A stretch of DNA of 63,932 nt, filler included, from Nemertoderma westbladi (taxonomy: Eukaryota > Animalia > Xenacoelomorpha), in the NCBI GenBank assembly GCA_032718475.1. It is 3 parts of 3 records of this genome, joined end to end, with 100 filler letters (N's around TTAATTAATTAA, not from the genome) between each part and the next. Parts side by side here need not be neighbours in the genome. Positions count along the whole stretch, not along the records: positions 18,664 to 49,078 come from JAUCBJ010005257.1; 2 more parts are not named here. One strand, written 5' to 3'. Below the pieces are notes generated by a model, which ran no database searches, was not told the DNA's origin, and saw only the letters and a list, made by a program, of their open reading frames with translations. The position numbers and the translations under genes were made by a program. The first letter of the stretch is position 1; each line of letters begins with the position of its first letter. Of the stretch, positions 18,564-49,178 are shown piece by piece.

Positions 18564-18663
18564 NNNNNNNNNNNNNNNNNNNNNNNNNNNNNNNNNNNNN
18601 NNNNNNNTTAATTAATTAANNNNNNNNNNNNNNNNNNNNNNNNNNNNNNNNNNNNNNNNNNNN
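18564..18663. other. Assembly gap with synthetic TTAATTAATTAA linker
   Basis: 44 N + ttaattaattaa + 44 N = 100 bp; identical structure at 49079-49178. Confidence 0.97.
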
Positions 18664-22613: not shown

Positions 22614-23610
22614 CTAGGAACTGGGAAGATCTTCTACTCGGATGGTAGTGGCGTTGCTAGGGAGGTCAGCGTTACTAGGGGGGGCGGAGCTGCTAGGAGG
22701 GATAGCGATAGCGCCACCTGCTGGGAATCCGGACGGTAGCACTATAACTTGGGCGCTGGGGGCGATGGTGCCACCCTGGGCGAGGACAGCGGCAGTGGCG
22801 GCGGTCCAGGCCGCGCCACCGGGCTCCAATACCGCCGCCGCGTTAAGTGGCGCTGTAGTAATCTGCTGCTCGGTGGCGTTCACTGTTGGCGCCGCCGGGG
22901 CAGGGTGCGCCACAGCCGCCGGTGCTGTGCCACTGTCCACGAACCGCGGTATGTCCTCGGGCAGCGGCAGTGCGGCCGCCTCTCGCAGCGGGAGCGCGTA
23001 CTCCGGCAGCGGGTCCGTCTGGGACAGCGTAGACGTGACCATGACGTGATCCACCAGAGCCCAGCCACCCATGTTCTTCCGCCGCCGACCGGGCGACAAC
23101 TTCTGCCCGTGGAACGCGTGCAGATGGTGTTTGAGAGCGCTCTTAGAGCAAAGAATCTTCTCGCAGGTGGGACAACGACACGCGGAACGCTGCTTAAACA
23201 ACAGACGTTCCTCTTCCGTGCCGTGATCCTTAATCACATGATCCTTTAGTTGTTGCTGAACGCGATACGATTTATCGCAGACTTCGCACGAGAAGGGTCG
23301 CTCGCCACTGTGGATACGCAGGTGGCTTGTCATGTGACGCAGCTGCTCGCAACTGTAGTTACAGAAACCGCACTGGTGGTGCTTCTGTCCCTTGTGAGTC
23401 TCGAGATGGGTGAGCAATGAATATCGATCGGAGAACTGGGTGTCACAGAACTTACACTTCATTGGGACCACGGACGTGTGGAGTTTAAGGATGTGCTGCT
23501 TGAGGTCGGACTTCCGACCACAGGTTGTATCGCAGTACTCACACTGGTAACGCGGTTTATTCCCGGTGTGGCCCATTAAGTGCTGCTTCATGCTGCCATT
23601 CTGCGTGAAC
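22614..23610 (-). CDS. CTCF: CTCF coding exon 2 (second half of ZF6 through ZF11, Ala/Pro-rich tail)
   Basis: Acceptor tttgtttcag| ends at 23611; reads (R)[44 protein letters not shown] and so on, matching CTCF fingers; phase 2 agrees with exon 1; stop at 22614-22616. Confidence 0.93.
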
Positions 23611-24065
23611 CTGAAACAAACGAGTTACAGTTACAAAATGTATGACGTTGGAATATTCGGCGTACTCTTCGGTATTAAATTCTTCGCTAAGATAGAAGTT
23701 CCCCGGAGAAAGTAAGTAAGGGACGTCTTAATTTGTGACCAAAATAGATAATTACCTGGAAATAAACCTATAAAACTATGAAACAAAATAGAAAATATTA
23801 CTTAGAAAGGAGAAGTAAAAAAAATGTTCTGACGTGATGTGGATTGAGACGAGGTAACATAATGATTGGATTGGATCAAAAGGCGTAGCATCGCTGAGTT
23901 TCTCACTAATTTATGATCATTATGGTGACTATTGCAATTAAACAACTTTGTTTAAGTTTCGTATCTGATTCTCAATAATTAAACGTAAATGTTAACCACT
24001 GTGTACCCGGTATATAACTACCAACGCTGAGTTTATGCAGCTTGTGGAGTGGAAACAGTGTTGGT

Positions 24066-26043
24066 ACACCGGACACTGGTACGGTTTAACTTACCTCGCG
24101 TGACATACCGGACACTGGTACGGTTTAACTTACCTCGCGTGACACACCGGGCACTGGTGTACGGTTTAACTTACCTCGCGTGACACAACGAGCACTGGTG
24201 TACGGTTTAACTTACCTCGCATGACACACCCGACACTGGTACGGTTTAACTTAGCTCGCGTGACATACCGGACACTGGTACGGTTTAACTTACCTCGCGT
24301 GACATACCGGACACTGGTACGGTTTAACTTACCTCGCGTGACACAACGAGCACTGGTGTACGGTTTAACTTACCTCGCATGACACACCCGACACTGGTAC
24401 GGTTTAACTTACCTCGCGTGACACAACGAGCACTGGTGTACGGTTTAACTTACCTCGCATGACACACCCGACACTGGTACGGTTTAACTTACCTCACGTG
24501 ACACACCGGGCACTGGTGTACGGTTTAACTTACCTCGCGTGACACAACGAGCACTGGTGTACGGTTTAACTTACCTCGCGTGACACACCCGACACTGGTA
24601 CGGTTTAACTTACCTCGCGTGACACATCGGGCACTGGTGTACGGTTTAGCCTACCTCGCGTGACACACCGGGAACTGGTGTACGGTTTAACTTAACTCGC
24701 GTGACACACCGGGAAGTGGTGTACGGTTCAACTTAACTCGCGTGACACAACGAGCAGTGGTGTACGGTTCAACTTAACTCGCGTGACACACAGGGCAGTG
24801 GTGTACGGTTCAACTTAACTCGCGTGACACAACGAGCACTGGTGTACGGTTTAACTTAAAACTCGCGTGACATACCGGACACTGGTACGGTTTAACTTAC
24901 CTCGCGTGACACACCGGGCACTGGTGTACGGTTTAACTTAACTCGCGTGACACACCGGGCAGTGGTGTACGGTTTAACTTACCTCGCGTGACACACCCGA
25001 CACTGGTACGGTTTAACTTACCTCGCGTGACACAACGGGCACTGGTGTGCGGTTTAACTTAACTCGCGTGACATACCTAACACTGGTACGGTTTAACTTA
25101 CCTCGCGTGACACACCGGGCACTGGTGTACGGTTCAACTTAACTCGCGTGACACAACGGGCACTGGTGTACGGTTTAACTTAACTCGCGTGCCACACCCG
25201 AACCTGGTGTACGATTTAACCTACCTCGCGTGACACACCGGACACTAGTACGGTTTAACTTACCTCGCGTGACACACCGGACACTGGTACAGTTTAACTT
25301 AACTCTCGTGACACAACGGGCACTGGTGTACGGTTCAACTTAACTCGAGTGACACACACGACACTGGTACCATTTAACTTACCTCGCGTGACACGCCCGA
25401 CACTGGTACGGTTTAACTTACCTCGCGTGACACACCGGGCACTGTTGTACGGTTTAACTTAACTCGCGTGACTCACCCGACACTGGTGTACGATTTAACC
25501 TACCTCGCGTGACACACCGGACACTAGTACGATTTAACCTACCTCGCGTGACAACACTAGTACGGTTTAACTTACCCCGCGTGACACACCGGGCACTGGT
25601 GTACAGTTTAACTTAACTCTCGTGACACAACGGGCACTGGTGTACGGTTCAACTTAACTCGCGTGACACACCCGACACTGTTACCATTTAACTTACCTCG
25701 CGTGACACACCCGACACTGGTACGGTTTAACTTACCTCGCGTGACACACCGGGCACTGGTGTAAGGTTTAGCCTACCTCGCGTGACAAACTGGGCAACGG
25801 TGTACGATTTAACCTACCTCGCGTGACACACCCGACACTAGTATGGTTTAACTTACCTCGCGTGACACAACGAGCACTGGTGTACGGTTTAACTTTACTC
25901 GCGTGACACACCGGACACTGGTACGGTTTAACTTACCTCGCGTGATACACCGGACACTGGTACGGTTTAACTTACCTCGCGTGACACACCGGACACTGGT
26001 ACGGTTTAACTTACCTGGCCTGACACACAGGACACTGGTACGG
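24066..26043 (-). repeat. 39/41-bp tandem array, about 48-50 units, copying the CTCF exon 1 end plus splice donor
   Basis: Minus-strand unit gtaagttaaaccgtaccagtgtccggtgtgtcacgcgag; continuous with the real junction ...CCGTACCAGTGTCCTGTGTGTCAGGCCAG|GTAAGTT at 26015/26014. Confidence 0.95.
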
Positions 26044-27177
26044 CTTCTCTCCGGTGTGGGTTTTCAAATGTCGCTTCAGTTTAAAGTTATCGGCGCAGGA
26101 ATACGAGCAGAGATCGCATTTAAACGGCCGATCGCCAGTGTGGCTGCGTAGATGCCGCTTCAGCTTACTGATTTCCACACTCGCGTACTCACAGTGGGTG
26201 CACTTGTGCGGCTTGTAGAGCGTGTGTCTGTAGCGCTGATGGCGCGTCAACTCCCCTTTGGTAACGAAAGCCTGCACGCAGTGCTCGCAGCGGTGCGGCT
26301 TGGAGCCGGTGTGGATGTGCATGTGCTGGTAGAGAAGGGATTGGAAGCGGAAAGTGCGGTCGCAGTTGGGACACTTGTGCGGCCGTTCTCGGTAGTGGGA
26401 TCGGAGGTGTTTCTCTAAGGTCTCCTGACTAAGGGCCGCGTAGTTGTTGCAGATCTCGCATTGGAAGACCTGTGAGTGGTTGGCAGCGTCGATGTCGTTG
26501 TGAATCTGCTTATAAACATCGTAACGGATTTCTTTACGGATTCCAACATCTTCTTCTTCTTCTTCCTCTTCTCCCGATCCCTCATTGTCGCTGCTGTTAT
26601 TACCGGTTTCGTCGACTTCCGCCGCACCTTCCGTCTCCTCGTCTGGTTCATCGTCGGGGAACTCGTAGATCTCGGCGTTGGCTGTTACGGACGGAGTCGG
26701 AGGCGGTTCGTCTTTAACGCGAACGTCAGTGGCAACGTTCGCCGAACTGTGGCCGCCAGGAGGCGCTGACAGTCTGTCTTGTTGCAGCTGGGAGCCCAGC
26801 AACCCCCCGGCCGTGATGCTGGCCACCGGTATGTTAACGACCCGGCCCTCCGTATCCACCATGACCAGACTGAGGACCTCTCCCTCCCCGGTCACAGTGC
26901 CCACCTGGGGCTGCAGCACGATCGGTTGGTTGGAGCCGTCGACCCCAGAGATCTGGATGGGAGTGCCGAGAGTAAAGCTAGACCCGATCCCCAGCGAGGT
27001 CGCGTCCACGGTCGACATAGAGAAAGCGACAGGCGGTGGGGACGCAGACGGTAGCGGGCCAACCTCTTCATTGTCCACCAAGTAAGCGCCTTGCGGTAAC
27101 TGGTTGGAAAATGTTTCAAGGAAATTGTTAACATCAATTCCTTGGTATGTAGGATCACCTCCGGTTGATTCAGCCAT
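26015..27177 (-). CDS. CTCF: CTCF coding exon 1 (N-terminus, ZF1-5, first half of ZF6)
   Basis: AFVTKGELTRHQRYRHT, YASVEISKLKRHLRSHTG and FKLKRHLKTHTGEKPY are CTCF ZF3-5 signatures; acidic YEF motif corresponds to the cohesin-binding YxF; donor AG|GTAAGT. Spliced CDS is 2160 nt (719 aa) with 11 C2H2 fingers. Confidence 0.95.
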
Positions 27178-28849
27178 TGATAAATACTAGGCCTATCTAT
27201 TAATTCAGTTTAAATTGTATTACAAGTATTAGGATGTTAGCAGGTTAGGCCTACGATAAACCAGAATGTATGTATGTATATACCGTGTTATATACTGATA
27301 AAAGATCCAGGGATCAGTCAGACAGTCCGTACCGGTACTCACTACTCAGTTAGTCTGTAGATCAGTAGATAGTACTGTAGTGTAGTAGTATGATGTTGAT
27401 AAGTAAAAACAAATGCTAATCCAAATAAAGTAGGTAGTAGAACAAACAAGCAGACAAGAGTTAAACATTTTTTTTTATTTAAGTACCGCTAATTATATTG
27501 AAATTGAATCCATTACAAATACGAACAAGGCGTTTTAGCACCCGTTGGTCCGATTATGCAGTAAATAAACGAATTATTATGCACACGCAAACTGGCAAAA
27601 TTAAGTGAAATTTCAGAATTAGTTATATATGTATAAAAAATAAGTAGAAAGAAAAAATAAAAATAGATTACGACCTTAGCAGATTAAGTCAATTCAGTAA
27701 AAACAAATTTTAACGAGTTTAAAAAATATTTCCATAAAATTAAAATTAAGTACCTACCGCGCTACCGGTAATTGTTATATACATAAAAAATACGAACGTG
27801 GCGCTATAAATTAATATTAGGCCTAAACCGGTAGTCAGGCAGTCAGGTAGTGGGTATTTATTGCTGTTACCTTATTGCTACCAGGACCAGCTACCACAAC
27901 GACGGATAACATTTCAATGGTAAATTTTTAATGTTTAATGTTTTATAATTTACGGGTGTAGAAAGAAATATCTTATAAGGCACCCACTAACAAAATACAA
28001 GTTATCGGAAGTCGTCATAGTACCAAGTAAAAATAATGAACACCAACATAGATACACAACGATATATTTACCACGTTCACAAAATTTATATAATAAAACT
28101 ACAGTAGTGTTGCTACAGTGTTCAGTATTACGTGTAACCTAAAATGGATATAAATGTTTATGTGTACAGTAGATTAAAAACGGCAATAGTAACGTATATA
28201 CTGTGGAGTGAGCAATGAGTAAAACCAACATAAATACAAATAAAAAATAATAAAAATTAAAATAATAGGCCTATATTCTAAACATATTGCGTCAGTAGTA
28301 CGGTACTGTATATTAATTTTAAAGCAAATTTTGATATTAATTTTTTGTGTAAAGATAGATTAAAACATCAATACTACATGACTACATGTAGAGAAATCAA
28401 ATAATAAACCCAACATCATACTGTATATTTACAATATAATAAGATTACAAATTAAAAAATAAATTTAAAAATTTTAAAAACTTTATTGCGATAGTATAAA
28501 ATAGGCTAAAAATTATATGAACATAATTGTTACAGTAGATTAAAACATCATTATATACATTCGATAATAGTAAGAGATACGACGGTATATAGTGGAAGCA
28601 ATAAAAACCAACATACAATATAATATTTACTAATTCACGAAACTTAATTACACTAGTATAAAATAATGCAAAGTAATTCTAAAAGGGTTGAGACAATTAA
28701 TATAGAAAATAAAAACTAAAATATGACACATTAAATAAAATATCTGCTATGAAACATTCAAATATTGATGTGTGGAGAGACGAGAGAGAGTTAGTGAAAT
28801 AAAATATGGCATTGATTAAATAAAATATAATACAGTAAATTTAAGGGCC

Positions 28850-30085
28850 TTGTCCATGAAACAATAAATAAATAGTGATGTATGAAAGGATTAGACAGAC
28901 CACTGGACCACCATGAAGGGATAAACTTTAAGGGGTAAACAGAATCAAATAGGTTCAAATTGTGCTTGAAAGAGTCCAGTGAGGGAGACATCACTACAGT
29001 TTCTGACAGCGCATTCCAGGCTGCCAGGGGTCAATGACTCTGAAATGGAATGTGGATTGTCTCGAAAGCAAACGCGCCCGTGGTTTAAGTAGTTTCATCG
29101 AGTGTCCACATCGGCTGCTGGTATCTAATGAGAAATACTGGCGGTAGTCTACATTATCCAATCCTTTAAGCAACCGATAGACGATAGACCTGGACTAAAT
29201 CCGCTCGGTGGCGCCGATATTCCAATGTGGGAAGTCCGAGTCTTCGAAGGCGATTTGGATAGGATAAAGGCCAAAGGCGGGGTAGCTCAGTTGGTTGAGC
29301 GCCGGGCCAGCAATCTATGGTTGTAGGTTCAGCCCCACCAGGGTCCACTCAGCCTTTCATCCACTGGGGTCGATGAAATGAGTACCGGTACCAGTTAAAT
29401 AACTGGGAGCAAATCTTGGGATAGGAGTAGCACCCACCCCTACCCTCGGGTAGCAGCTATCGAAAGAGGAGCCTTCGGGTCGCCTCCGGCTTCGGCCGAC
29501 TGTTTGCTTTGCTTGCTAAATCCGCTCGGTGGCGCCGATACTCCAATGTCTGAATGTGGGAAGTCCGAGTCTTCGAAGGCGATTTGGATAGGATAAGTCT
29601 TGGAACCAAAGTGGCAATCTCGTCGCTCTACGCTGAACACTCTCGAGTAAGCGAATTTCACCAACTCTAGGCGACCAAACAGGTGAGCTGTATCCTACTT
29701 AATTACTATGGCTGTATGGGGCGAACCGATTGATTTATATAAACTAATAAACATAATGTCATCAAGGTGTTTAAAGCTTCGATAAATGAGTCCCAGAGTG
29801 CGATTTGCTTTTTTAGTTACCGGTCTGCCGGTACTGCAGCAATACAGCAATATGTTTTGTAAATTTCAGGTTATTCTCATTCTGAAATATAACTCCAAGA
29901 TCTTTCTCCCAAGTTGTAGTTTATAATCCAGAACCTCCCAAGTGGTAAGTGTGTTGTGGATTGTTGTATCCAAGATGCATACTTTTACATTTATCTTGCA
30001 GTCTTGATTATAAAGCAGTTGCCATGTTAAACTCCATTGGTAAAGTCTGTCGAGATCAGGTTGAAGTGGACCAATTGCAGTAACA
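28850..30085 (-). mobile_element. Degenerate CR1-type LINE 3' part, interrupted by a SINE
   Basis: LQPDLDRLYQWSLTWQL, LSYPNRLRRLGLPTLEYRRHRADLVQVY and SLDSFKHNL are CR1-like motifs in broken frames. Confidence 0.8.
29268..29515 (+). mobile_element. tRNA-derived SINE, apparently full length
   Basis: A box tagctcagttgg, B-box-like ggttcagccc, central actcagcctttcatcc...ggtcgatgaaatgagtacc, (tttgc)-like tail; flanked by a long direct duplication; a 3' fragment recurs near 61157-61180. Confidence 0.8.
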
Positions 30086-30087
30086 GA

Positions 30088-30663
30088 CCGACGAATCTGT
30101 ACAAAAAAGTATAAAATACTATGCAGTGGGTAGATAAAACTCCTATAACTGAGACTCAAAATGTAGGTCATAGTCTTAAAGTAGCCCATATACTGAAGGT
30201 GAAGGATATACTGTATGCTACATTATGTAGGCTATGCAGCTATTTATGTCTGTATACGTACGCCTCTATCTGCAACTTTATTGAGTTCTCCCTCTGCACT
30301 TTTGCGGTCTTGGGGCCGTTTTTTGTGTTTTTTTGAACACAAAGGGCTGCATTAAAACTCATAAGATTGTATTGTAATCGGGGCCTACTCTCTGACTGCT
30401 AGATCAGCCCCCGCTCAATGCATGGCTCGCCCCACAATCAGACAATGCTTTGTTTTATTTTGCACATCATGCAGTCATGTGCGCCCCTCTAAACGATTTG
30501 AACTACACTTGGATACACGTTTTGCAAGCGTTTCTCACTCGTTTGTACTCTTTTGTACTATTTTTGCACTCTTTTATACTATTTTTGCACTTTATTGTAC
30601 TCTTTTGTATTCTTTTGTACTATATTGTACTATTTTGTATTTTTTTGTACAAATTCGTCGGAC
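30088..30663. mobile_element. Element with inverted termini and ttttgtac subrepeats
   Basis: ccgacgaatctgtacaaaaaagtataaaata is the inverse of tattttgtattttttgtacaaattcgtcgg. Confidence 0.6.
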
Positions 30664-30769
30664 CCGCAACAGGAGAGAGGGTGAAAATTATGCTAGCCTT
30701 TGAACGGGCTGCCGGGCGCGTCTTGCGCTATGTAACGATACCGTTAGCTTTCGAGTAATTGACGACAGT

Positions 30770-31120
30770 AACCGTTTAACCGAAACTGTAGTTTCATCCC
30801 CAGATCCCCGGCTCTCAACGCATTTAAATCAAGGCTCAATGTACACTTAACAACTCATCGATGTTATCTATAATTGGTGTAGCTGTAGAGCTCTTGACAC
30901 ATCAATCGGTGGATGTGGCATACTTAGATTTCAGAAAGGCATTTGACAGTTTGACTCAGTACCACACAAACGTCTCATTGATAAAATACGTGCGCTCGGT
31001 GTCTCTATATGGTAATCTACTTCGGTGGTTGACTTATTTTTTATCAGGGCGCAAACAATGAACAACGAGTAGTCGTAGCTGGAGAACACTCAGAATGGCT
31101 GCCAGTTCTTAGTGGATGGC
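30770..31120 (+). mobile_element. CR1-type RT fragment
   Basis: VDVAYLDFRKAFD and GNLLRWLTYFLSGRKQ motifs. Confidence 0.75.
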
Positions 31121-31250
31121 TCTTTCCGGTTTCAGGGGCACTGAATTTTTAACAACTGCAGTATTTTACTGTCAACTGTTATTTATTGTACCGGTTCACC
31201 AGTATTGGTGTACTGTAGGTACAGGTGTATAAACATAACCTGGCGGTACC

Positions 31251-31798
31251 GGTACATGCTAAAAAGTAGAATGATCTAGAATGACCTAGAATGAGCTAGA
31301 ATGACCTAAGAATGGGCTATGAGAATATGATAGAATGCAAGAATGATCTAGAATTATCTAGAATGACATAAGAATCACCTAGAACAAACTCTGTTGAGAT
31401 GATAGAATGCAATACCGACCTATACCGAGCTATAACAAGATAAGAATCACCTAGAATGAGCTATTATTATTAGTAATACTATTATTTGTAGTAAATATGC
31501 TCGCTTAGAAGAATGCTGCTTACTACCGCTTGTTTATGTCCGGCACTAATAGGCTTCCGGTATGTAGTATCCAAAACCGAAGCGCTGTAAGTAAAGAACT
31601 TATCCACTACCTGCTCTTTACTAGAAATCGCCATACTACGGCATATTGCTGGCTCTCGGAAAAACGATTCATTTTATATTGCATTCTATCATATCCTCAT
31701 AGCTCATTCTAGGTGATTCTTAGGTCATTCTAGCTCATTCGAGGTCATTCTAGATCATTCTAGCTCATTCTAGCTCATTCCACTTTTTAGCATGTACC
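31251..31798. mobile_element. Foldback-type element with 11-bp subrepeats in its arms
   Basis: ggtacatgctaaaaagt...actttttagcatgtacc inverted termini; (agaatgacct/agaatgagct)n on the left is mirrored by (tcattctag)n on the right. Confidence 0.8.
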
Positions 31799-34599
31799 TA
31801 ACTGGCACCTGGCAACAGCTTCCATCAGTCCATTATGTAGTCTCAGACGCAGACCACACACTGACAAACTCATGTTGGCTGCAGTACCTGTAATAACTAT
31901 ACTTGCTGGTATTGTTACTTTGGGGATCGTCTGACCGTCCCTTAAAACACTTATCTACTTATATATATATTTATATATACAGATATAGGCCTACACAGCT
32001 ATACGGTACCATGTTTATGAAACACTTTTTACAATTTTTTTCATTAACATTTTTTTTTCTACCGACTGTCTGACCATATGGTTTCCCTCAATTAGTAATG
32101 TGATCGTTTATTGTATTGGTTAGAAAAGTCCGCATCTGTAACCTGCTCCTTTCTCTCAATTGGTAAACTGGCTGTTTATTGTTTTGGAGTTTGGTAAAGC
32201 CAGAAAGCAGTAAAGTGATCGTATATTGTTTTGGTTAGAAAAGCCCGCCTCTGCAACCTGCTCCTTTCCCACAATTGGTAAAGAGCGGCCGTTTATTGTT
32301 TTGGTTAGAAAAGCCTGTCTAAAGTAACCCTGTACTGTAACCTGCTGCTTTGTATTGTTTAATACTCGTACCGGTATTTCTATTTTATTATACTTCAGAT
32401 TTTGCGGTTATGTAGCCTATAATAAAAATATTGATTGAGAACCATGTTTATAATAATTTATATAATAATTTTTTTTCCATAATTTTTGGGAAAATTTTTG
32501 AGTAGGGTCTGCATCATTGTCCAGAATAGGGTGTTTCCCTTCACTTCTATGGGGCTTTCTATTATTCCTTCCTGTCCCAAATACGTCGTGTAATGATTTC
32601 CAACCTGTCCAATATAGGGGCATCCAATCAAATCATCATATGAGCCAACTCCTCATCATCGGACCAATACCAACATTCCTAAAGTTAGGCATCTCCCTTA
32701 TTGGCTATATAATGTAAAGGTTAATGGAAAATTCCACTGATATATAATCCAAGTGTCAGCTATGAATCCGGGGCTCATTATAACAACCTATACTGGACAG
32801 AGCAACGTATTTGGGACAAGAGCTGGTTGAAGTATATGTACAGTGGAAATTCCCATTCTAAATAAGGGCATTTGGAATACATGTTCCCTAGTTATGGTTA
32901 AAGATATACTGTGGGTGCCTTGCAAATGGCCTGTAAGACTGTGATGCATTATAGGCTATAGTGTCATCATAGTCACGTTGTTTCATTTCATGTTGTGCAA
33001 TTTATTCATATTGTGTAATTTATTCATGTTGTTCAATTTATTCATTGTGCAATTTATTCATGTGGTGCAATTTATTCACTTATAATAAATCTAAATACAT
33101 CCGTATAATAATAATTAAATGACAATCAAATTAGTGATATCGAAACCTCCTCCCCCAGACTCAACTTCATCCCAAATAGTGATTAATAAGTCTTAAATTT
33201 GACTCAAATAGGTTGCTTGTGTCCCATATAGGGTGTTTGTGTCTGAAGGCATTCCAGAAAGCGACCAGTAAGCAAGCAAGCAACAGCGACAACATGAACA
33301 AAAATATGAATTTTTTTTAGTTACATTTTTTTTTTATTTACATTTTTTAGTTGTAAACATGTTATATACTGTAGTTGTGGTATGCAGTAAAATTCATGTA
33401 ATTCTGACCAGAACTACACTGTTGTCCCATGATATATCAAACCTCACTGCTTTGAGGTGACACAATGCGGCCCAAGCCGACAATGTAGGGTGCATGTTGG
33501 GACTAGTTCTCATAACTTTGACTTGATTTTTTTTTGTCCTATCAACTTTTTTCAGTTTTGTTACATATTAAACACTGTCAGAAAATCAAAATTAAAAAAA
33601 AACTTTTTTTGGACCACCCTAATATTATATGTTAATAAATTCACAAAGAAGGACAGGACAGACTGACACGACGGTTTTCAATATCTGTGCGAATGTTTAT
33701 TCCCTTAACATTCTCATTGCTGCTTCTATCAGTCTATACTACTATGTTAGTGCCATATACTGTAGCAACCAACAACATTCTATAGCCAGGTTGGTGGAAA
33801 AACAGTTCAAAAATAAATCACGGTTGGTTAGTTTTCCAAGCGGCGTCAAGAAGAGTTAACTGGTTAATACAGTAGGTACTGCACGGCTGGCGCATCCCGG
33901 GGCTGGCGGAAACCGGCTGTCACTCATCCTGGACCTGTCCTGTATTGTTTATTTGACATAAGGTAGTGGCAGCCACACCTTTAAATCACTTAGCTTTAAC
34001 TAGGCCTACCTGTCTTCAGTCTGCATGCGTGCTGTACATATCTTACTGGTCCGCAATGCCTAATCTCTAAAATCACATACGGATTATTCTCCGTAGGAAT
34101 CCATTACATTTACATACGCACATACGCGTATGTACATACGGATACGGCAAATGCATACGATACGGATACGGCGAAAAGTTATACCCGAATCCCATATAAT
34201 GATAGTATGCTGAACATACGTTAGCGAGAGACCGAATCAAAGGCTTTGAAGAAGTCAACAAAGATAACAGCCAGATGTCTGTCTTTCTTTTTTGATTTCA
34301 ATTATCCTACTGTATAAGTGCCAAAATGGGTTCCATGGTCCCACGACCGACGACATTTACGGAACCAATTTTGCTTTTCAGATAAGGGGGGGGGGGGGGG
34401 GGGGGGGGGGAGGACTGGGCGCAATAAAAATGCATATCTCCTCCAAGGGAAATTGGACGCAAATAACAGCTGATTACTCTCAAAAATAAAACTGCAACCT
34501 GTTCTATTGTGTTTAGATTATTGTTTTTGTTGTAGACCAAGTGTATACAACTATAATACCGGTATCGGTATTGTAAGAACAACCATGATAATACAAATC

Positions 34600-35796
34600 T
34601 ACATCAATACTCCCCCTAAAAATAATTGAGACATATACATATGTAGAAACAATTTTCAATAGGAGTTAATAGTCAGGGCGTTAACTATAAGTATACAATC
34701 CTGACTTAGTTCAAATTTAAATGTAAGAAATTTAAATTTAAGTAGATAAATTCTAATCTAAGTTGTAAGTAGATTCAATTCTATTCAAGGTTCTTGAATT
34801 AATCACTATGAGTAGTTTACAGCGAACCACGTTTTTTGCGCTGAGGAACTTTACAGTCGGTCTGGTGGCTTTCCCCGATTTGATCGCTGTGGGTATCTTT
34901 TAACAGTTGCTGGGGTAACCAATGACGTCACTTGCGATTCCACAGTTTGACTAGAACCACCAATCGGAATAACAGGCATCGATGATGGATGACCAGAGCT
35001 TTGCTCAGTAGTAAGGGTAGAAGCTCCAGGATTTGGAGGGATATCCCCATCAGATGATGAATACATAGCCCTACAGTAGGCCGGGGTGGTGGAGATTGGG
35101 CATTGGGCTATACTGTAGCATCATGTTCACCACTCACCATATCTGGAAAATCGCGTGATAAGGGAGTTTCTCTCACCTTTAATTGGTCAATATGACGGCG
35201 AACCGCTACATCACCGACTCTAACACGGAACATCGTTGGAGATATCTGACTTTCAATTCGACCAGCTTCTCAGCCAGACCATCTGGGACCGAACGAAACT
35301 TGTAAGAATATACAGTATCATATCGGATGGTGACTTGTTATCTAGACAACGTCGTGGAGCGCTTCGAAAATCGATTGACAGCGGATGTAATATTAGTGCT
35401 TGCAGCTGTCATGATCTTCCTCAACCCCTTTTTAGTATACTGTACTTGTCGCTCAGCAGCTCCAGTTGAATTTGGGTGGTAAGGAGCTGGATTATCATCA
35501 TGAGCAATACCATAATGTTTGCAAAACAAGTTAAATTCAGTCGAAGCAAATTGTGGACCATTATCAGAAAATAACATGTTGCAAATACCATAAGTTGCAA
35601 TAAATCTCTTCATCAGCTGTACAACTCGAGAGGAGTTTGCTGTTGGGCCACACACATGAACTTCAGGCCACAACGAAAATGAATCAACACAGACTAGAAT
35701 CTGCTTACTACATATTTCACCAAGGTCAATATGAACTCGCTCAAATGGTTTGGTGGTTTGAAATAATGCCTTTCTGTAGAACGTTCTGTTGGCCAA
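34600..35796 (-). mobile_element. Gypsy/Ty3 LTR-retrotransposon integrase remnant
   Basis: PFERVHIDL, VDSFSLWPEV, SDNGPQFAS.EF and PYHPNSTGAAER integrase-core motifs; C-terminal RYPQRSNRGKPPDRL; purine tract agggggag near 34610; frameshifted. Confidence 0.85.
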
Positions 35797-35878
35797 GGCC
35801 TTAAAATAATGTGGACCACCGCACCGTATGAATTAATATCATCAGTGAACATGAATCCGGAACATCGTCATGTCATGA

Positions 35879-35925
35879 GGCGGGAAATTTAATTGTTAAA
35901 TGTGTTCAAATAGGCGGGGGCGGGA
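35879..35925 (+). promoter_or_regulatory. Candidate TTF2 promoter elements (E2F-like site and GC box)
   Basis: GGCGGGAAA at 35879-35887 and ggcgggggcggg at about 35913-35924, about 310-350 bp upstream of the ATG. Confidence 0.4.
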
Positions 35926-36234
35926 CATACTGACATAACACAACCAGATTAATTCAGGCTGCCCTTGAACTGTTGAAACAGCCTACTGCTGTACTGGCCT
36001 AGCACCTCAGCACCTTGTACCGTCAGACCGTAATCTGTAATCAGGTAATCAATAGCAGAATAGTGGCAGTCTATTTCAGTATTGTTACCGGTAAGCAGAG
36101 CAGCAGAGGGCTAGGGCCTACTCCTTAATTGGTGTAATTGGTTGTTTATAGCTGTGAGCTCTGGAGCTGCATGCGACAGTGCGATAATACAGTAATACTG
36201 TACTGCTGTAATTGGTAATACAAAAGACGGAAAG

Positions 36235-37443
36235 ATGGAAGTGAAACTTTGTAAAGGTCACGGAAAGCCTTGCCTCCTAAAGACCGGAGTCAAGGATGGG
36301 CCTAACAAAGGCCTCAGTTTCTATATGTGCAGTCAGAAAGAAAGTTGTTCGTTTGTTACTGAAGCGCGTGGTTACGAGAAATCAATTTCCTGCCCAGTTC
36401 ACCCACAAAATATCGTGGAGATGCAAGCCTTCGTCAGGAGCGAGACTTCGCAAGACTTCCAACATTATTTCCGTTGTATATTATCAAAACAAATTGGTAA
36501 GAAATGGTGTGGCTCTTCGCCGCTTTCAGAACCGCTAAAAATTCAACTAAATAAACCGGTGAAACCGAATCCCGGAGGAGATATAACCAATACTTACAGA
36601 GGCTCATCGACCTCCTGGGATAAATCGGTGCCGCAACACGGTGCTGCACCGAACCGCAACGAGTTTAGGCCTATAAGACCGGAACAACCTCATGTGAAGG
36701 AATCGGGAGGTCCGGATTCTGCTGCTGGTAAGTCTGAAGACGATGTTATATTTTTACCAGCGGAACCAGTTCGAATCGGACTAAATGTCAACGCGAAGGA
36801 GTTTAAACCTCGGGATAGACAACCTTTAAATAAACCCAAACCGAAGTCGGTTCCGTTAAATTCTACCTCGGTTGGAACGCAGGGTGGTGCTTGGCTCGAC
36901 GAGTGGGGCGCTGCTGATGGGTTCAAGAAAGACGACAAGGATGATAGCGTGCGGATTCTGGAGCCGCATTCGGGTTACTACCCGATGTTTAAGGAGCAGT
37001 TGAGTTCGCAACTACACCGGGTGTTTACCTGGGGTGTCAGCCAGTTCTCCGCGGGAGGGGAACACGCGAGTAAGCTGAATCTACCCGCGAGTAAACTCTA
37101 CGGGGGTACGATGTCGCAAGCGCGGTCTCGGGAAGTGACCACGGTTACCATGGAGAGTATAGCCCGTCTACACGGGTCATTAGAGAATCGGCCAACCAAA
37201 GAGAGTGAGTTACCGGACCCGGGGGGGTTGAAGGTCACGTTGATGTCTCATCAGCGACAGGCTTTGGCGTGGTTGACATGGCGGGAGAACCAGCACCCGT
37301 TGGGCGGGATTCTGGCCGACGATATGGGACTCGGGAAGACTTTGACGATGATAGCGCTGCATCTCAAGTGGTCAGAGTTGGTCGTCCAGGCAAATAAAGA
37401 GGCCAAGACGGAGTCTAACGATGAAGCTGATAGCGACTTTAAG
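36235..37443 (+). CDS. TTF2: TTF2/lodestar SNF2-family ATPase, exon 1
   Basis: N-terminal GRF-type zinc finger CKGHGKPCLLKTGVKDGPNKGLSFYMC; HQRQALAWL and GGILADDMGLGKT (motif I); phase-0 donor AAG|GTTACC is weak but frame-compatible. Confidence 0.9.
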
Positions 37444-37751
37444 GTTACCTACCCTAAAGGAGTTACTATTACATTATATAATAAACATACCGCCAGTTAG
37501 ATAGTTAGGTTCATCACATAATTAATATAATAATAACTTCGATAAATATTGAGAACAAATAGGTTTTGATATTTCAAATAAAAAAATGTACTAATTATTA
37601 ATAATTAATTAATATTGCAAAAAACTAATTTAATTTAACCATCCTATTATCCTATCATTACTGCATTAAACTAATTATTGTTACTTCCTTTATTCAAATT
37701 AGAACTATCACTAATATCATTGGTAATAATAATAATTAATTGTTTAATCAG

Positions 37752-39155
37752 GTCAACTCAGATTCCTCCAAAACCTCCTCTTCTATGGGCGACTGGTTGT
37801 CTAAGAAGTCCCCCGCTGTACCCCTAACCTCCACCGCGACCCTCATTGTCTGTCCCGCCTCCGTTCTCCACCAATGGCATCGCGAGATAGAACGTCGTGT
37901 GGACGTCGGCCTCCTACGAACCTACATCTACCACGGCTCGGCTCGCGAAACCAACGCGAAACGACTCGCCTCCAACGACATGGTGCTAACGACCTACGGA
38001 ACGGTGGCCGCCGAGATGAAACCGGTGACGGAACGCTCCATAGCGGAACAGCGTTACTACGAACCGGCTGGGGACATTCCGGAAGGTTCCGGGGAGCTTC
38101 CGGTCCTCGGAAAGGTCCGCTGGGATCGGATAGTGTTGGACGAAGCTCACACCATAAAGAATCCCAAGAGTCAGGCGGCTATAGCGGTGACGTCATTGCG
38201 TAGTCGAGCGCGTTGGGCGGTGACCGGCACCCCGATACACAACAAACTCTTAGACATGTACTCCTTGCTGCGGTTCCTTCGCTGCTCCCCGTTCGACGAG
38301 TACAAGTTGTGGAAACGGCAGGTGGATAACTCGTCGGAGCTCGGCCGCAATCGGTTGGAGACTGTGGTTAAAGCCGTGCTCCTCCGACGGACTAAAAGCG
38401 AACTGGGTGTGGATAACAAGCCGTTGGTAACTCTACCGGAGAAGGTTGTTATCGAGCACAAGGTTGAGTTGTCGGCCGATGAGCGGGCCGTTTACGATGT
38501 CATGTTCACTCACTCGACGAGCGTTATGTCAAATTATCTTCAAGATAAAAATGATCCTGGGTCGTTGTCGAGTGGGTCTGCTGGTCGGGTCGCCTCTGGG
38601 TCGGCTGGTCGGGTCGCCTCTGGGTCTGCTGGTGGGGTCGCCTCTGGGTCTGCTCTCTCGGTGACTCACACTGGCGGCGCCGACACCGCCTGGGTCGATA
38701 AATTCTACGCCACGATGAACCAACACGGGGGCATCGCTTTTATCCTCGTCCTTCTGTTGCGTCTCCGACAGATCGCCACCCATATGGGTCTCCTCAAGGA
38801 AGTTATAGACGCCAACGACGTGGAAGAAGACGCCGACAAACAGGCGGGTATAGACCTCGCGGATAAACTCTTGGAGATGAGTATCTGCGAAGATTCTTCT
38901 AAGAAAACTTGGCAATCCAATAAGATGAGTTCCAAGTTAACGTTGTTGATGGAAAAGGTAACTGAGATCCGTTGTAGATCAGTTGAAGCCGGTAGGAAGA
39001 TCGTCATTGTCTCCCAGTGGAAGAAACTCCTCCATATAATAGCCGTCGAGTTGACTTCGCGACGCTTAAAGTATTTCATTATTGAGGGTTGTGTTACTGC
39101 GAAGGCGAGGGCTGATGCTATAGACGACTTTAATGATAATCCCAATGGAATTCAG
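37752..39155 (+). CDS. TTF2: TTF2 exon 2
   Basis: Acceptor tttaatcag|; TLIVCPAS, RIVLDEAH, RWAVTGTPIHN, LLRLRQ, KIVIVSQW; donor CAG|GTTAGA in phase 0. Confidence 0.93.
38572..38655 (+). repeat. In-frame 24-bp coding repeat (GSAGRVAS, about 3.5 copies)
   Basis: tgggtctgctggtcgggtcgcctc tandem copies inside TTF2 exon 2. Confidence 0.85.
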
Positions 39156-39239
39156 GTTAGAATATATTTCTTCTGTAATGCGAAGGTATTGTTTGTTGCT
39201 TTTTGTTTGTTTTAGAACATGTTTGTATCTCTTTGTGGG

Positions 39240-40030
39240 GCCACGCAGTAAAGGCGGGCCTTGGCGCACAATTATAATTAGTAAATAAGGCAAAATTTCA
39301 TGTCCGTCTGTCTGTCTGTCTGACGGTCTGTCTGTAATGAAAAATTCATTCGTAAATAACTTTTGAAGATTTTAACCATTTTCAACATTGAAGTTACGGG
39401 CAAATACCTCTCGAACTTTTGACTCCAGATCAAATCGAACTTGCTCAATTTCGCGTGCTGCGCGACGCCCCACGAACGTGGTAATTTATGGTTTAATTTT
39501 TGTCCTAAACACCTTACTTTGTGCTCTTTATTAGTTGCTGAGTTTATATCGTGACCATAGAGCCAGAACAACAAATACCACAATTTTTCAAAATTACTCA
39601 AGATGGCGTTCTACATCTTATGTTAGAATCCTAGACTTGTATGTCAGTCCGTTTAGGAGATATGGAAAACCAGAACAACCCTCACAACATAAAAGTTGAA
39701 AACCGTTAGAGGTAAAACAACACACACAGACTAGAGTTAATGTTAAATTTCAGTTTGTGTTGTTTTGCCTCTTTGGAAAATAACGAAAAAAACAGTTTTT
39801 TTCATTAACAAAATTCATTCTGAATGCTAGCCACTATTATAAAATGTGTCATTGTATCTTCCCAGACCTCTGTCGAAAATATTAGGAGACGGGATACATA
39901 TAGAGGGAAATGAGAAGGTTTTTTCATTTTTCTCGAAACCACAATTTTTGGTGAGTGTTGTTCTGGCTCTTTGGTTACGATATAATCTGTTCTCTTTAGT
40001 TCCCATTTTTGACGGTCATTCAATAATTAT
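39240..40030. mobile_element. Probable Helitron/Helentron-type non-autonomous element in TTF2 intron 2
   Basis: (gtct)n microsatellite followed by a taacttt motif, an arrangement resembling DINE-1-like elements; boundaries uncertain. Confidence 0.4.
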
Positions 40031-40172
40031 TGGCTCTACTTAGTCTGCCTGTAGTGCTAATGTTGTTTCGGTAACTTACCTGAACTGAAGGCCTCTACTA
40101 GAGGCAGAAAGCTTGTAACTGTCACTTTATCTTTTGTTTGTGGGGGTCTGCCTTTCTGTATGTATCTTTCTA

Positions 40173-43100
40173 TGTTTGTATCTGTTTGTTTTAGGTAATG
40201 CTTGTATCTGTTTGTTTTAGGTAATGTTTGTATCTGTTTGTTTTAGGTAATGCTTGTATCTGTTTGTTTTAGGTAATGCTTGTATCTGTTTGTTTTAGGT
40301 AATGCTTGTATCTGTTTGTTTTAGGTAATGTTTGTATCTGTTTGTTTTAGGTAATGCTTGTATCTGTTTGTTTTAGGTAATGCTTGTATCTGTTTGTTTT
40401 AGGTAATGCTTGTATCTGTTTGTTTTAGGTAATGCTTGTATCTGTTTGTTTTAGGTAATGCTTGTATCTGTTTGTTTTAGGTAATGTTTGTATCTGTTTG
40501 TTTTAGGTAATGCTTGTATCTGTTTGTTTTAGGTAATGTTTGTATCTGTTTGTTTTAGGTAATGCTTGTATCTGTTTGTTTTAGGTAATGCTTGTATCTG
40601 TTTGTTTTAGGTAATGCTTGTATCTGTTTGTTTTAGGTAATGCTTGTATCTGTTTGTTTTAGGTAATGCTTGTATCTGTTTGTTTTAGGTAATGTTTGTA
40701 TCTGTTTGTTTTAGGTAATGTTTGTATCTGTTTGTTTTAGGTAATGCTTGTATCTGTTTGTTTTAGGTAATGCTTGTATCTGTTTTAGGTAATGCTTGTA
40801 TCTGTTTGTTTTAGGTAATGCTTGTATCTGTTTGTTTTAGGTAATGCTTGTATCTGTTTTAGGTAATGCTTGTATCTGTTTGTTTTAGGTAATGCTTGTA
40901 TCTGTTTGTTTTAGGTAATGTTTGTATCTGTTTGTTTTAGGTAATGCTTGTTTCTGTTTGTTTTAGGTAATGTTTGTATCTGTTTGTTTTAGGTAATGCT
41001 TGTATCTGTTTGTTTTAGGTAATGTTTGTATCTGTTTGTTTTAGGTAATGTTTGTATCTGTTTGTTTTAGGTAATGCTTGTATCTGTTTTAGGTAATGCT
41101 CGTATCTGTTTGTTTGAGGTAATGCTTGTATCTGTTTGTTTTAGGTAATGCTTGTATCTGTTTTAGGTAATGCTTGTATCTGTTTTAGGTAATGCTTGTA
41201 TCTGTTTGTTTTAGGTAATGCTTGTATCTGTTTGTTTTAGGTAATGCTTGTATCTGTTTTAGGTAATGCTTGTATCTGTTTGTTTTAGGTAATGCTTGTA
41301 TCTGTTTGTTTTAGGTAATGCTTGTATCTGTTTGTTTTAGGTAATGCTTGTATCTGTTTGTTTTAGGTAATGCTTGTATCTGTTTTAGGTAATGCTTGTA
41401 TCTGTTTGTTTTAGGTAATGCTTGTATCTGTTTGTTTTAGGTAATGCTTGTATCTGTTTGTTTTAGGTAATGTTTGTATCTGTTTGTTTTAGGTAATGTT
41501 TGTATCTGTTTGTTTTAGGTAATGTTTGTATCTGTTTGTTTTAGGTAATGTTTGTATCTGTTTGTTTTAGGTAATGCTTGTTTCTGTTTGTTTTAGGTAA
41601 TGTTTGTATCTGTTTGTTTTAGGTAATGCTTGTATCTGTTTGTTTTAGGTAATGCTTGTATCTGTTTGTTTTAGGTAATGCTTGTATCTGTTTGTTTTAG
41701 GTAATGTTTGTATCTGTTTGTTTTAGGTAATGCTTGTATCTGTTTGTTTTAGGTAATGCTTGTATCTGTTTGTTTTAGGTAATGCTTGTATCTGTTTTAG
41801 GTAATGCTTGTATCTGTTTGTTTTGGGTAATGCTTGTATCTGTTTGTTTTAGGTAATGCTTGTATCTGTTTTAGGTAATGCTTGTATCTGTTTGTTTTAG
41901 GTAATGCTTGTATCTGTTTGTTTTAGGTAATGTTTGTATCTGTTTGTTTTAGGTAATGCTTGTTTCTGTTTGTTTTAGGTAATGTTTGTATCTGTTTGTT
42001 TTAGGTAATGCTTGTATCTGTTTGTTTTAGGTAATGTTTGTATCTGTTTGTTTTAGGTAATGTTTGTATCTGTTTGTTTTAGGTAATGCTTGTATCTGTT
42101 TTAGGTAATGCTTGTATCTGTTTGTTTGAGGTAATGCTTGTATCTGTTTGTTTTAGGTAATGCTTGTATCTGTTTTAGGTAATGCTTGTATCTGTTTGTT
42201 TTAGGTAATGCTTGTATCTGTTTGTTTTAGGTAATGCTTGTATCTGTTTGTTTTAGGTAATGCTTGTATCTGTTTGTTTTAGGTAATGCTTGTATCTGTT
42301 TTAGGTAATGCTTGTATCTGTTTGTTTTAGGTAATGCTTGTATCTGTTTGTTTTAGGTAATGCTTGTATCTGTTTGTTTTAGGTAATGTTTGTATCTGTT
42401 TGTTTTAGGTAATGTTTGTATCTGTTTGTTTTAGGTAATGTTTGTATCTGTTTGTTTTAGGTAATGTTTGTATCTGTTTGTTTTAGGTAATGCTTGTTTC
42501 TGTTTGTTTTAGGTAATGTTTGTATCTGTTTGTTTTAGGTAATGCTTGTATCTGTTTGTTTTAGGTAATGCTTGTATCTGTTTTAGGTAATGCTTGTATC
42601 TGTTTGTTTTAGGTAATGCTTGTATCTGTTTGTTTTAGGTAATGCTTGTATCTGTTTTAGGTAATGCTTGTATCTGTTTGTTTTAGGTAATGCTTGTATC
42701 TGTTTGTTTTAGGTAATGTTTGTATCTGTTTGTTTTAGGTAATGCTTGTTTCTGTTTGTTTTAGGTAATGTTTGTATCTGTTTGTTTTAGGTAATGCTTG
42801 TATCTGTTTGTTTTAGGTAATGCTTGTATCTGTTTTAGGTAATGCTTGTATCTGTTTGTTTTAGGTAATGCTTGTATCTGTTTGTTTTAGGTAATGCTTG
42901 TATCTGTTTGTTTTAGGTAATGTTTGTATCTGTTTGTTTTAGGTAATGTTTGTATCTGTTTGTTTTAGGTAATGTTTGTATCTGTTTGTTTTAGGTAATG
43001 TTTGTATCTGTTTGTTTTAGGTAATGCTTGTATCTGTTTGTTTTAGGTAATGCTTGTATCTGTTTGTTTTAGGTAATGCTTGTATCTGTTTGTTTTAGGT

Positions 43101-44223
43101 AATGCTTGTATCTGTTTGTTTTAGGTAATGCTTGTATCTGTTTGTTTTAGGTAATGTTTGTATCTGTTTGTTTTAGGTAATGCTTGTATCTGTTTGTTTT
43201 AGGTAATGCTTGTATCTGTTTGTTTTAGGTAATGCTTGTATCTGTTTGTTTTAGGTAATGTTTGTATCTGTTTGTTTTAGGTAATGTTTGTATCTGTTTG
43301 TTTTAGGTAATGTTTGTATCTGTTTGTTTTAGGTAATGCTTGTATCTGTTTGTTTTAGGTAATGCTTGTATCTGTTTTAGGTAATGCTTGTATCTGTTTG
43401 TTTTAGGTAATGCTTGTATCTGTTTGTTTTAGGTAATGCTTGTATCTGTTTGTTTTAGGTAATGCTTGTATCTGTTTGTTTTAGGTAATGCTTGTATCTG
43501 TTTGTTTTAGGTAATGTTTGTATCTGTTTGTTTTAGGTAATGTTTGTATCTGTTTGTTTTAGGTAATGTTTGTATCTGTTTGTTTTAGGTAATGCTTGTA
43601 TCTGTTTGTTTTAGGTAATGTTTGTATCTGTTTGTTTTAGGTAATGCTTGTATCTGTTTGTTTTAGGTAATGTTTGTATCTGTTTGTTTTAGGTAATGCT
43701 TGTATCTGTTTGTTTTAGGTAATGCTTGTATCTGTTTGTTTTAGGTAATGCTTGTATCTGTTTTAGGTAATGCTTGTATCTGTTTGTTTTGGGTAATGCT
43801 TGTATCTGTTTGTTTTAGGTAATGCTTGTATCTGTTTGTTTTAGGTAATGCTTGTATCTGTTTGTTTTAGGTAATGTTTGTATCTGTTTGTTTTAGGTAA
43901 TGCTTGTATCTGTTTGTTTTAGGTAATGTTTGTATCTGTTTGTTTTAGGTAATGCTTGTATCTGTTTGTTTTAGGTAATGTTTGTATCTGTTTGTTTTAG
44001 GTAATGTTTGTATCTGTTTGTTTTAGGTAATGCTTGTATCTGTTTGTTTTAGGTAATGTTTGTATCTGTTTGTTTTAGGTAATGCTTGTATCTGTTTGTT
44101 TTAGGTAATGCTTGTATCTGTTTGTTTTAGGTAGTGCTTGTATCTGTTTGTTTTAGGTAATGCTTGTATCTGTTTGTTTTAGGTAATGTTTGTATCTGTT
44201 TGTTTTAGGTAATGCTTGTATCT
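40173..44223 (+). repeat. 26-bp (some 22-bp) tandem array, about 155-160 units, copying the TTF2 intron 2 acceptor plus exon 3 start
   Basis: Unit gtaatgcttgtatctgtttgttttag; the last copy is the real junction tgtttgttttag|GTAATGCTTGTATCTCTAAAG at 44208/44209. Confidence 0.97.
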
Positions 44224-44366
44224 CTAAAGGCTGGTGGCGTTGGAGTTAATCTCATTGGCGGTAGTCATTTATTTCTCACTGATATGCATTGGAACCCCCA
44301 ACTGGAGGAACAGGCCTGTGATAGAATATACCGAGTGGGTCAGACGAGGGAAGTTTTCATTCACAG
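44209..44366 (+). CDS. TTF2: TTF2 exon 3
   Basis: [45 protein letters not shown] (helicase motifs V and VI); phase-0 start; donor AG|GTGGGT in phase 2. Confidence 0.93.
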
Positions 44367-45006
44367 GTGGGTTTATGTTTTATTTAATACCCCGTTCGTC
44401 TGTTAATCCGCGCAGATAATGGGCGCAAAGTTATACGTCATTCCTATAAATAGAAACATGTTGAATGTTATTAATACAACGCCTAATGGAAGTCAGTTGA
44501 AATAACTTTCCTTAAAGGTAAACACAATTAATTACAACGTGTGTCGCCCCCTAATGGAAGTCTGTTGAAATAACTTTCCTTAAAGGTAAACACAATTACG
44601 TCTTATACCCCATTAACTACAAAAAAATAATAGAATTAGGACCCTCTAAAACCCCCGCCATACACTAAATGATACCGGTAATAAACTGCACGAAAGCTAA
44701 GTCTATATTCTATAAGAAAATATATGACAATTTTGTCGCCGGGAAAGGGGGTCTAGGACAAAAATAATTAATTTGTGAAAAAATGTTATCTTCTTCTTTC
44801 AATATCTGGCCAAGCATTTTTCATATTATAAATTATGCGTTCAATCACTCAGTCGAACATGTTGCTTTTAAGATAGATTTCTTAGGCGAATACGCATCTA
44901 TCCGAGGGCTTTGTTACACTTTGTGGCTAGCTCCGTACGAAATGTTTAATACTTAATGGAATTTTACTAACTTTCAGTTTTCAGTAATTAAATGAAATTC
45001 TTATAG

Positions 45007-45151
45007 ATTCGTTGTTACTGACACTGTGGAGGAGAAAATACTGCAACTTCAGCAGAAGAAGATGGATTTAGCTAGTGGAGTTCTATCAGGTTCCAAAGTT
45101 ACCGCACATAAACTGTCGTTACAAGACTTGCGGTTATTGTTTGGTGTCTAA
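45007..45151 (+). CDS. TTF2: TTF2 exon 4 (terminal; absent from the ORF track)
   Basis: Acceptor ttcttatag|; (R)[47 protein letters not shown] matches the TTF2 C-terminus; the four exons total 2916 nt (971 aa). Confidence 0.92.
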
Positions 45152-47800: not shown

Positions 47801-48250
47801 GAATCGCATTGTAACAATTAACAAAGAATGCAATAGGGCCTTCGCGCAGCACGTGACTTAAATTTAATTTAAGTACTAATTCGAAAGTATTACTGTATTA
47901 GGATATTATTGGAATGTGGTGTGGAATGTTAGGAATGTATATGAATCAGCAGTCCGGTAGAGGTTTACATATTTAAAAGAACTGCCGAAATATAAGTTAT
48001 ATGAGTATTATTTGTTATGATTTCTACCATTATATTCTTCCACGCAAAGTTCCTAGTCCTATAGGTCCAATCAAAACATTCTGTATATTGCCAATGGTTC
48101 AACGTAATCAAAGAGACGACGCTAGACACGCACGCAGCCAATCCCAGTGAAAAATGCACGCAAATAAGTAGTCATAAGTGATAATTCTAGAAAGGCTTTT
48201 CTGCGAATGTAGGCTATTGTGTAATTCATTTCAGTACCGGTCTGCCTAAC

Positions 48251-48534
48251 TGTCTGCACCAGGTGTCTGCACCAGGTGTCTGCACCAGGTGTCTGCACCA
48301 GGTGTCTGCACCAGGTGTCTGCACTAGGTGTCTGCACCAGGTGTCTGCACCAGGTGTCTGCACCAGGTGTCTGCACCAGGTGTCTGCACCCACCAGGTGT
48401 CTGCACCAGGTGTCTGCACCAGGTGTCTGCACCAGGTGTCTGCACCAGGTGTCTGCACCAGGTGTCTGCACCAGGTGTCTGCACCAGTTGTCTGCACCAG
48501 GTGTCTGCACCAGGTGTCTGCACCAGGTGTCTGC
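48251..48534. repeat. 13-bp minisatellite (tgtctgcaccagg)n, about 21 copies
   Basis: Direct tandem repeat followed by tgcttaacgtttacaccc, the same anchor as the repeat at 8-203. Confidence 0.95.
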
Positions 48535-48659
48535 TTAACGTTTACACCCCAATTCCGCTTGGTTTATATCTTGATTATCAATAAAATAGTAACGTGAAAT
48601 ATTTATGGAGCGTATATTTGAGAATGTTGAAATAATGCGTTTAGTAGTGTGACCAGCGT

Positions 48660-49078: not shown

Positions 49079-49178
49079 NNNNNNNNNNNNNNNNNNNNNN
49101 NNNNNNNNNNNNNNNNNNNNNNTTAATTAATTAANNNNNNNNNNNNNNNNNNNNNNNNNNNNNNNNNNNNNNNNNNNN
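49079..49178. other. Assembly gap with synthetic TTAATTAATTAA linker
   Basis: Same 100-bp structure as 18564-18663. Confidence 0.97.

Follow-up and report, generated by a model that had tools for sequence, protein, structure and literature searches.

The two longest tandem arrays in a 63,932-nt stretch of the Nemertoderma westbladi genome (assembly GCA_032718475.1), hereafter the window, each lie across an exon-intron border of a conserved gene: a splice donor of CTCF on the minus strand and a splice acceptor of TTF2 on the plus strand. Both arrays are probably border-spanning minisatellites of the type named 'mirages', born by slippage or unequal duplication, enlarged by unequal exchange and tolerated by their host genes, with no targeting of junctions. 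A preliminary description of the window had placed the arrays on these two borders with only the exon-proximal copy in frame, and array calls, reading frames and the spliced contigs of one sequencing run (X1) bear this out. Its suggestion that surplus copies end up inside the intron, where they are tolerated and then expand, likewise fits the sequence, the spliced contigs and the share of both introns, about 80%, that the arrays occupy. Two observations are new here: the dual acceptor and donor nature of the TTF2 unit, which the preliminary description had not noted, and differences at three third-codon positions of the CTCF exon end, one of which leaves the real donor as the sole perfect one.

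Two arrays carry splice sites of CTCF and TTF2

Tandem Repeats Finder applied to the 64-kb window returned 55 rows, which reduced to 33 distinct arrays once overlaps were merged and two poly-G calls dropped. The two longest, of about 49 and about 158 copies, extend over 24066-26039 and 40172-44223, respectively.

The minus-strand gene is CTCF. Among solved structures it matches human CTCF best (E 5e-69), and among the matches listed the named CTCF proteins align at 53-59% over the zinc fingers, ranked behind many multi-finger proteins. Read through the exon-proximal donor, the gene forms one open frame of 720 codons including the stop. Coding exon 1 (26015..27177, minus strand) ends with ...CCT GTG TGT CAG GCC AG at a phase 2 donor, CAG|GTAAGT, where the X1 contig is spliced. 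The donor array follows at 24066..26043, then the unique part of the intron (23611..24065) with the real acceptor TTTCAG|GTTC, and then coding exon 2 (22614..23610), placed by frame and by a loose end of the X1 contig at 23579-23608 and carrying the remaining zinc fingers and the C-terminus. Each unit, 39 or 41 nt long, consists of 29 nt of exon end, the donor and 10 nt of intron (29 nt then GTAAGTTAAA), with no pyrimidine tract. The array thus presents 49 donor positions, the real one at 26015/26014 and 48 decoys, of which 32 keep the GT (25 as GAG|GTAAGT) and 16 have lost it. The 48 units fall into 37 types and the array makes up 81% of the 2404-nt intron. Reading past the first donor meets an immediate TAA. 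The best candidate for an extra decayed unit copy in the unique part of the intron was not significant (P 0.12). At the shortened last unit, about 24056-24078, a hairpin with a 6-bp stem is predicted (DNA fold -4.2 kcal/mol; no control), and folding found no strong hairpin in the array units of either gene.

The plus-strand gene is TTF2, since nearly all of the top named hits among the matches listed are TTF2 at 39-44% and the product carries GRF, SNF2 and Helicase_C domains. Through the exon-proximal acceptor it reads as one open frame of 972 codons including the stop. The coding part of exon 1 (36235..37443, plus strand) is joined in X1 across a GT..AG intron of 308 nt to exon 2 (37752..39155), which ends CAG|GTTAGA. 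At the far side of intron 2 stands the acceptor array (40172..44223), composed of 157 decoy units and the exon copy, and exon 3 (44209..44366) begins at its last acceptor, TTTTAG|GTAATG in phase 0, with the X1 contig matching from 44211. The last coding exon (45007..45151) is predicted by frame and GT-AG. The 26-nt unit joins 11 nt of intron end to the first 15 nt of exon 3. These 15 nt encode VMLVS, a sequence shared by 104 of the 116 matching homologues (among 120 listed). The AG is kept in 155 of the 157 decoys and GTAATG in nearly all, and use of any of the 157 upstream copies leads to a stop 9-25 codons after exon 2. The units are of 8 types, carry 0.41 substitutions per 26-nt unit and together fill 80% of the 5053-nt intron. 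Within the array a string of 17 units recurs; the corresponding length in 200 shuffles averaged 9.2 and never exceeded 15.

Every unit of the TTF2 array doubles as an acceptor and a donor, reading TTTGTTTTAG|GTAATG, in which a pyrimidine tract and AG run straight into the donor. Splicing of exon 2 to an upstream AG would rebuild CAG|GTAATG, which matches the donor consensus at 7/9 positions and equals the real intron 2 donor in this respect, so that a wrong choice of acceptor could be re-spliced. The preliminary description had called the units of the two genes unrelated; their sequences do differ, but both contain the core AG|GTAA.

A further trace of the acceptor lies 30 nt behind the intron 2 donor, at 39186..39232 on the plus strand, where a decayed and stranded unit copy (TTTTAG|AACATG...) reaches a local score of 51 against a maximum of 39 in 500 plain shuffles and is the sole match outside the array. 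It is separated from the rest of the array by a high-copy repeat insertion (39241..40136), which is flanked by a 9-nt duplication, TTTGTGGGG (39232-39240 and 40137-40145), is matched by very many contigs with loose ends at 39240, and contains a likely nested piece (39508-40103) whose joint, 39507-40104, is present in X2-X4. The stranded copy suggests that the TTF2 border underwent an earlier small duplication.

Arrays and spliced transcripts in the sequencing runs

Eight sequencing runs were listed, five of them containing the stretch and none recorded as RNA, and four were compared (X1-X4) over stretches that took in two to three units per array. X2, X3 and X4 are DNA runs that represent two samples; X2, although flagged as a possible origin of the window, departs from it at 23 TTF2 positions. 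All three contain the array units as well as their joins to exon and to unique intron, on haplotypes that differ from the window. The arrays are therefore real and shared across runs.

X1, labelled 'DNA?', behaves as RNA because its contigs are spliced. Its CTCF contig covers 26013-27250, leaves at the first donor (26013-26015) with the letters of the exon copy and continues into exon 2. The TTF2 contig skips intron 1 and later runs directly out of exon 2 into exon 3, with the 15 nt occurring once. At contig level in this run, mature CTCF and TTF2 RNA is shown to carry no extra unit; the data comprise one contig per gene, with contigs collapsed and rare isoforms dropped. X1 contigs leave uncovered the CTCF array units compared as well as the first TTF2 intron and the beginning of the second, an absence that among contigs proves nothing. 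Likewise, no joint between TTF2 exon 2 and the array appears among the joints listed (15 of 23), contigs being prone to drop rare forms.

A probable earlier exon end preserved in the CTCF array

The CTCF exon copy differs from the array at positions -15, -6 and -3, all of them third-codon positions (chance 0.023). The exon letters at -6 and -3 occur in none of the 48 decoys and that at -15 in two, and position -15 is polymorphic, with the array letter carried by X3 and X4. Two fixed differences among 9 third positions are more than the 1.7-2.1% divergence between TTF2 alleles would lead one to expect (P about 0.01), so the CTCF array is likely older than the present alleles and likely keeps an earlier exon end, which amounts to a small internal clock. 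The array encodes CHAR, as does human CTCF, and the present exon CQAR; among the 37 motif-matching hits of 120 homologues listed, CHAR is commonest (15, against 6 with CQAR).

Owing to the change at -3 (G-to-C), the real donor is the only 9/9 consensus match among the 49. This change may be compensation or drift, between which one site cannot discriminate. The recurring 17-unit block in TTF2 and the three CTCF differences, confined or almost confined to the exon copy, indicate a concerted turnover within the arrays that bypasses the edge unit.

Frequency of junction-spanning arrays in the window

For the junction test each array was collapsed to one unit, and at least 3 nt were required on either side of the junction. 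The junction set numbered 13, of which 6 are backed by X1 and 7 are predicted. Two of the 33 arrays span a junction and the other 31 touch none; 11 of the 13 junctions in the window are free of arrays. The probability of two or more junction arrays is 0.023 when all 33 arrays are set against the 13 junctions, 0.007 when the 6 intron-touching arrays are used and 0.0002 with the 6 large arrays, with 2 of 6 spanning junctions in both subsets. Conditional on one array in each of the short CTCF and TTF2 introns, the probability that both span a border is 0.005-0.037. The introns minus their arrays measure 484 nt in CTCF and 1039 nt in TTF2 (134 nt if the insertion is also removed), and because they are this short, an array born there would span a border with a chance of 13% in CTCF and 4-28% in TTF2. 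The preliminary description had judged two such cases non-random. The coincidence is indeed uncommon, with P between 0.0002 and 0.04 depending on the null, but the window and the class 'largest' were chosen post hoc and n=2; the low values are suggestive.

Three other arrays were considered and set aside. A 23-nt array at 5853-5921 begins 7 nt past a donor and contains no exon sequence, and the 12- and 13-nt arrays (9-203 and 48251-48534) share a flank and look element-borne. A density of 33 arrays in 64 kb marks this as a repeat-prone genome. The AG|GT context of both arrays has to be read against the window at large, where GT comes directly after 5 of 7 acceptors, AG directly before 4 of 6 donors, and AG|GT stands at either end of three introns, all in a small sample of 13 junctions; the frequency of GT after acceptors lessens the weight of the dual TTF2 unit.

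Origin, tolerance and alternative readings

We propose that each array began when a short stretch across the border was duplicated, by slippage or unequally, at matching words on either side: ATG(T/C)TTGTATCT, at a distance of 26 nt in TTF2, and AA(G/A)CCGTACCA, at a distance of 39 nt in CTCF. The TTF2 word has T on the intron side and C in the exon, where C is the conserved state in homologues. Both variants run through the array, the plain T type in 46 of 157 units, as would fit a first misalignment at that word. Growth would then have proceeded by blocks of units through ordinary unequal exchange, for which a recurring string such as that of 17 units is expected. The outcome is correct mature mRNA, as seen in the X1 contigs. 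Splice-site choice may be settled by position, with the site nearest the exon winning, while mis-spliced transcripts contain a premature stop and would be degraded; for TTF2, the wrong choice of acceptor could also be repaired through the rebuilt CAG|GTAATG donor. The arrays are likely tolerated, given that mature RNA carries no extra unit, and the loss of GT in 16 of 48 CTCF decoys supports near-neutrality. We claim no excess decay at these GT positions, as variants spread by copying and other positions are equally variable. Purely intronic arrays would be tolerated as well, so survival alone predicts no excess of junction arrays, and enrichment would need a mutational bias because tolerance cannot make junction arrays commoner. 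The presence of two such arrays in adjacent genes most likely reflects a repeat-prone genome, short introns and the post hoc choice of window, not junction targeting.

Several observations weigh against this account. The window-level chance is low under every null (0.0002-0.04) and the junction arrays are the two largest, while the older decayed copy at the TTF2 acceptor hints that one border was hit more than once. What look like seeding microhomologies may instead be shortened end units. The RNA evidence amounts to a single contig for each gene in a single run, X1. Contigs of this run are also found over TTF2 array positions (40118-40246), where they may stem from RNA left unspliced or wrongly spliced, from DNA carry-over or from the same unit elsewhere in the genome. 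Direct use of the last AG and use of the first AG followed by re-splicing would yield an identical TTF2 mRNA, so a rule that the exon-nearest site wins does not follow for TTF2; nor can branch position tell which AG is used, as neither the unit nor the sequence ahead of the first TTF2 acceptor contained a YTRAY-type branch motif. Finally, a similar array in human ABCA7 does disturb splicing (PMC5954066).

A mutational bias of the lineage, by which exon-intron borders, above all AG|GT ones, are favored sites for the origin or expansion of short duplications, could act through composition steps, low-complexity pyrimidine tracts or transcription- or splicing-coupled breaks. It would account for the share of large and of intron-touching arrays that span junctions (2 of 6 each; P 0.0002 and 0.007), for AG|GTAA in both units and for the stranded older copy at the TTF2 acceptor, and the amphioxus authors propose a general phenomenon in their animal (PMC3087553). 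We nevertheless hold it unlikely: there are two cases, picked post hoc, against 11 of 13 array-free junctions, the prevalence of GT after acceptors makes AG|GT uninformative, and the window contains no break or repair signature beyond microhomology, nothing in it pointing to the splicing- or transcription-coupled breaks that the preliminary description had raised. A bolder extension, in which kilobase mirages are enriched at AG|GTAA by self-correcting re-splicing, form a main route of intron growth and call forth compensation in host exons such as the silent G-to-C of CTCF, acquired once the array existed, strikes us as a long shot.

The arrays might instead be used, as a ladder of recursive AG|GT sites in TTF2 or as a source of decay-bound isoforms that tune TTF2 or CTCF dose by array length. 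The AG and GTAATG kept in nearly all TTF2 decoys, the rebuilt donor on a par with the real one, the X1 cover of array positions and the length dependence of ABCA7 splicing (PMC5954066) could all be read in this way. Yet high unit identity is expected after recent expansion, at 0.41 substitutions per unit, a third of the CTCF decoys lack GT, the joints listed include none from exon 2 to the array and the mRNA contigs run unbroken across both junctions, and we give use very little credence. An assembly artefact, a small repeat over-expanded or misplaced at a junction, is suggested by the gaps in the window and the frame break in its NOC3L gene, and contigs give no check of copy number. It is scarcely credible, however, with units and joins recovered in three DNA runs from two samples on haplotypes unlike the window, and with 37 CTCF unit types and ordered TTF2 blocks that resemble neither collapse nor stutter.

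Other features of the window

A ligand-gated ion channel gene contains similar tandem exons at 4634-4958 and 5516-5846 that encode one and the same membrane region, both matching PF02932 positions 1-56, and form a candidate mutually exclusive pair; a third exon lies at 13167-13783. A phosphatidylserine synthase-like gene occupies a single frame at 17062-18015 (PF03034, E 4e-55). NOC3L, with matches of 37-42% among the named relatives listed, is split over overlapping frames (57948-58955 and 58912-60330) at a G-rich stretch (58900-58990), a break that is likely an assembly error or a small intron. The coding regions contain one intron in CTCF (22614-27177), three in TTF2 (36235-45151) and at most one in NOC3L (57951-60330). 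Vertebrate CTCF, TTF2 and NOC3L carry far more introns, and the lineage looks intron-poor.

LINE reverse transcriptase-like or integrase-like fragments were recognized by eye at 10869-11936, 47070-47897, 56529-57344 and 35338-35832, one of them in an ion-channel intron. The 12-nt array (window 9-227) and the 13-nt array (48236-48553) have related units and the same end flank, and look like a minisatellite on a dispersed element. Two 100-letter gaps, at 18565-18664 and 49080-49178, include a TTAATTAATTAA spacer and mark scaffold joins.

Comparison with known systems

The preliminary description saw in the arrays a distinctive mode of intron growth. Arrays of this kind have already been described, as mirages and their human counterparts (PMC3087553; PMC3902484; PMC1557585; PMC5954066), and those of CTCF and TTF2 are unusually large members of the mirage class. 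The name was given in amphioxus to border-spanning repeats in Adh3, the globins BflGb6 and BflGb9, troponin C and PGBD5, whose mRNA is normal and whose origin was called unclear (PMC3087553; PMC3902484). As here, their units span a donor or an acceptor, many but not all keep AG/GT, edge units escape homogenisation and the mRNA is normal, and the present unit lengths fall within the amphioxus range of 10-160 bp. The amphioxus repeats, in a different animal, have 2-7 copies in the accounts cited, in contrast to the 49 and 158 found here. The present arrays also show that a border-born repeat can reach 80% of an intron in a core gene.

Human genes provide two parallels. Intron 7 of F7 harbors a 37-bp variable number tandem repeat (VNTR) in which the most upstream donor wins unless the decoys are perfect (PMC1557585). 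Like the CTCF array, its first unit spans the exon end and donor and only the most upstream donor is used (in CTCF, in one run), but F7 offers 5-9 sites with a modest donor, whereas CTCF has 48 decoys, 25 of them one base off perfect, and a real site that alone is perfect. Intron 18 of ABCA7 carries a 25-bp VNTR of 12-427 units that disturbs splicing (PMC5954066). It resembles the arrays described here in unit length and size range, begins at a donor, and yields a frameshift and early stop when the next unit is used; it differs in that its unit starts at GT and not inside the exon, in its demonstrated effect on splicing, and in that the TTF2 array is on the acceptor side. The two N. westbladi arrays, in which a real acceptor faces 155 decoys and a real donor faces 32, constitute a natural test of splice-site choice on a large scale.

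Duplicated AG|GT is also central to the Rogers model of intron gain, in which the duplicate is removed cleanly by splicing (Hellsten et al. 2011; PMC3265369). The arrays share this capacity for clean removal, but their copies lengthen introns that retain unique sequence of their own and a separate splice site at the other end; neither array is a coding duplication that created both new intron ends. The TTF2 unit, a pyrimidine tract followed by AG|GT, further resembles recursive splice sites (PMC13196383), a likeness not shared by the CTCF unit, which has no tract. A genome-wide test of junction-spanning repeats was not found in the literature searched, whose coverage excludes most subscription papers. 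A genome-wide excess of repeats at AG|GT borders, if true, would link mirages, Rogers-type intron gain and recursive splicing and explain the origin of mirages.

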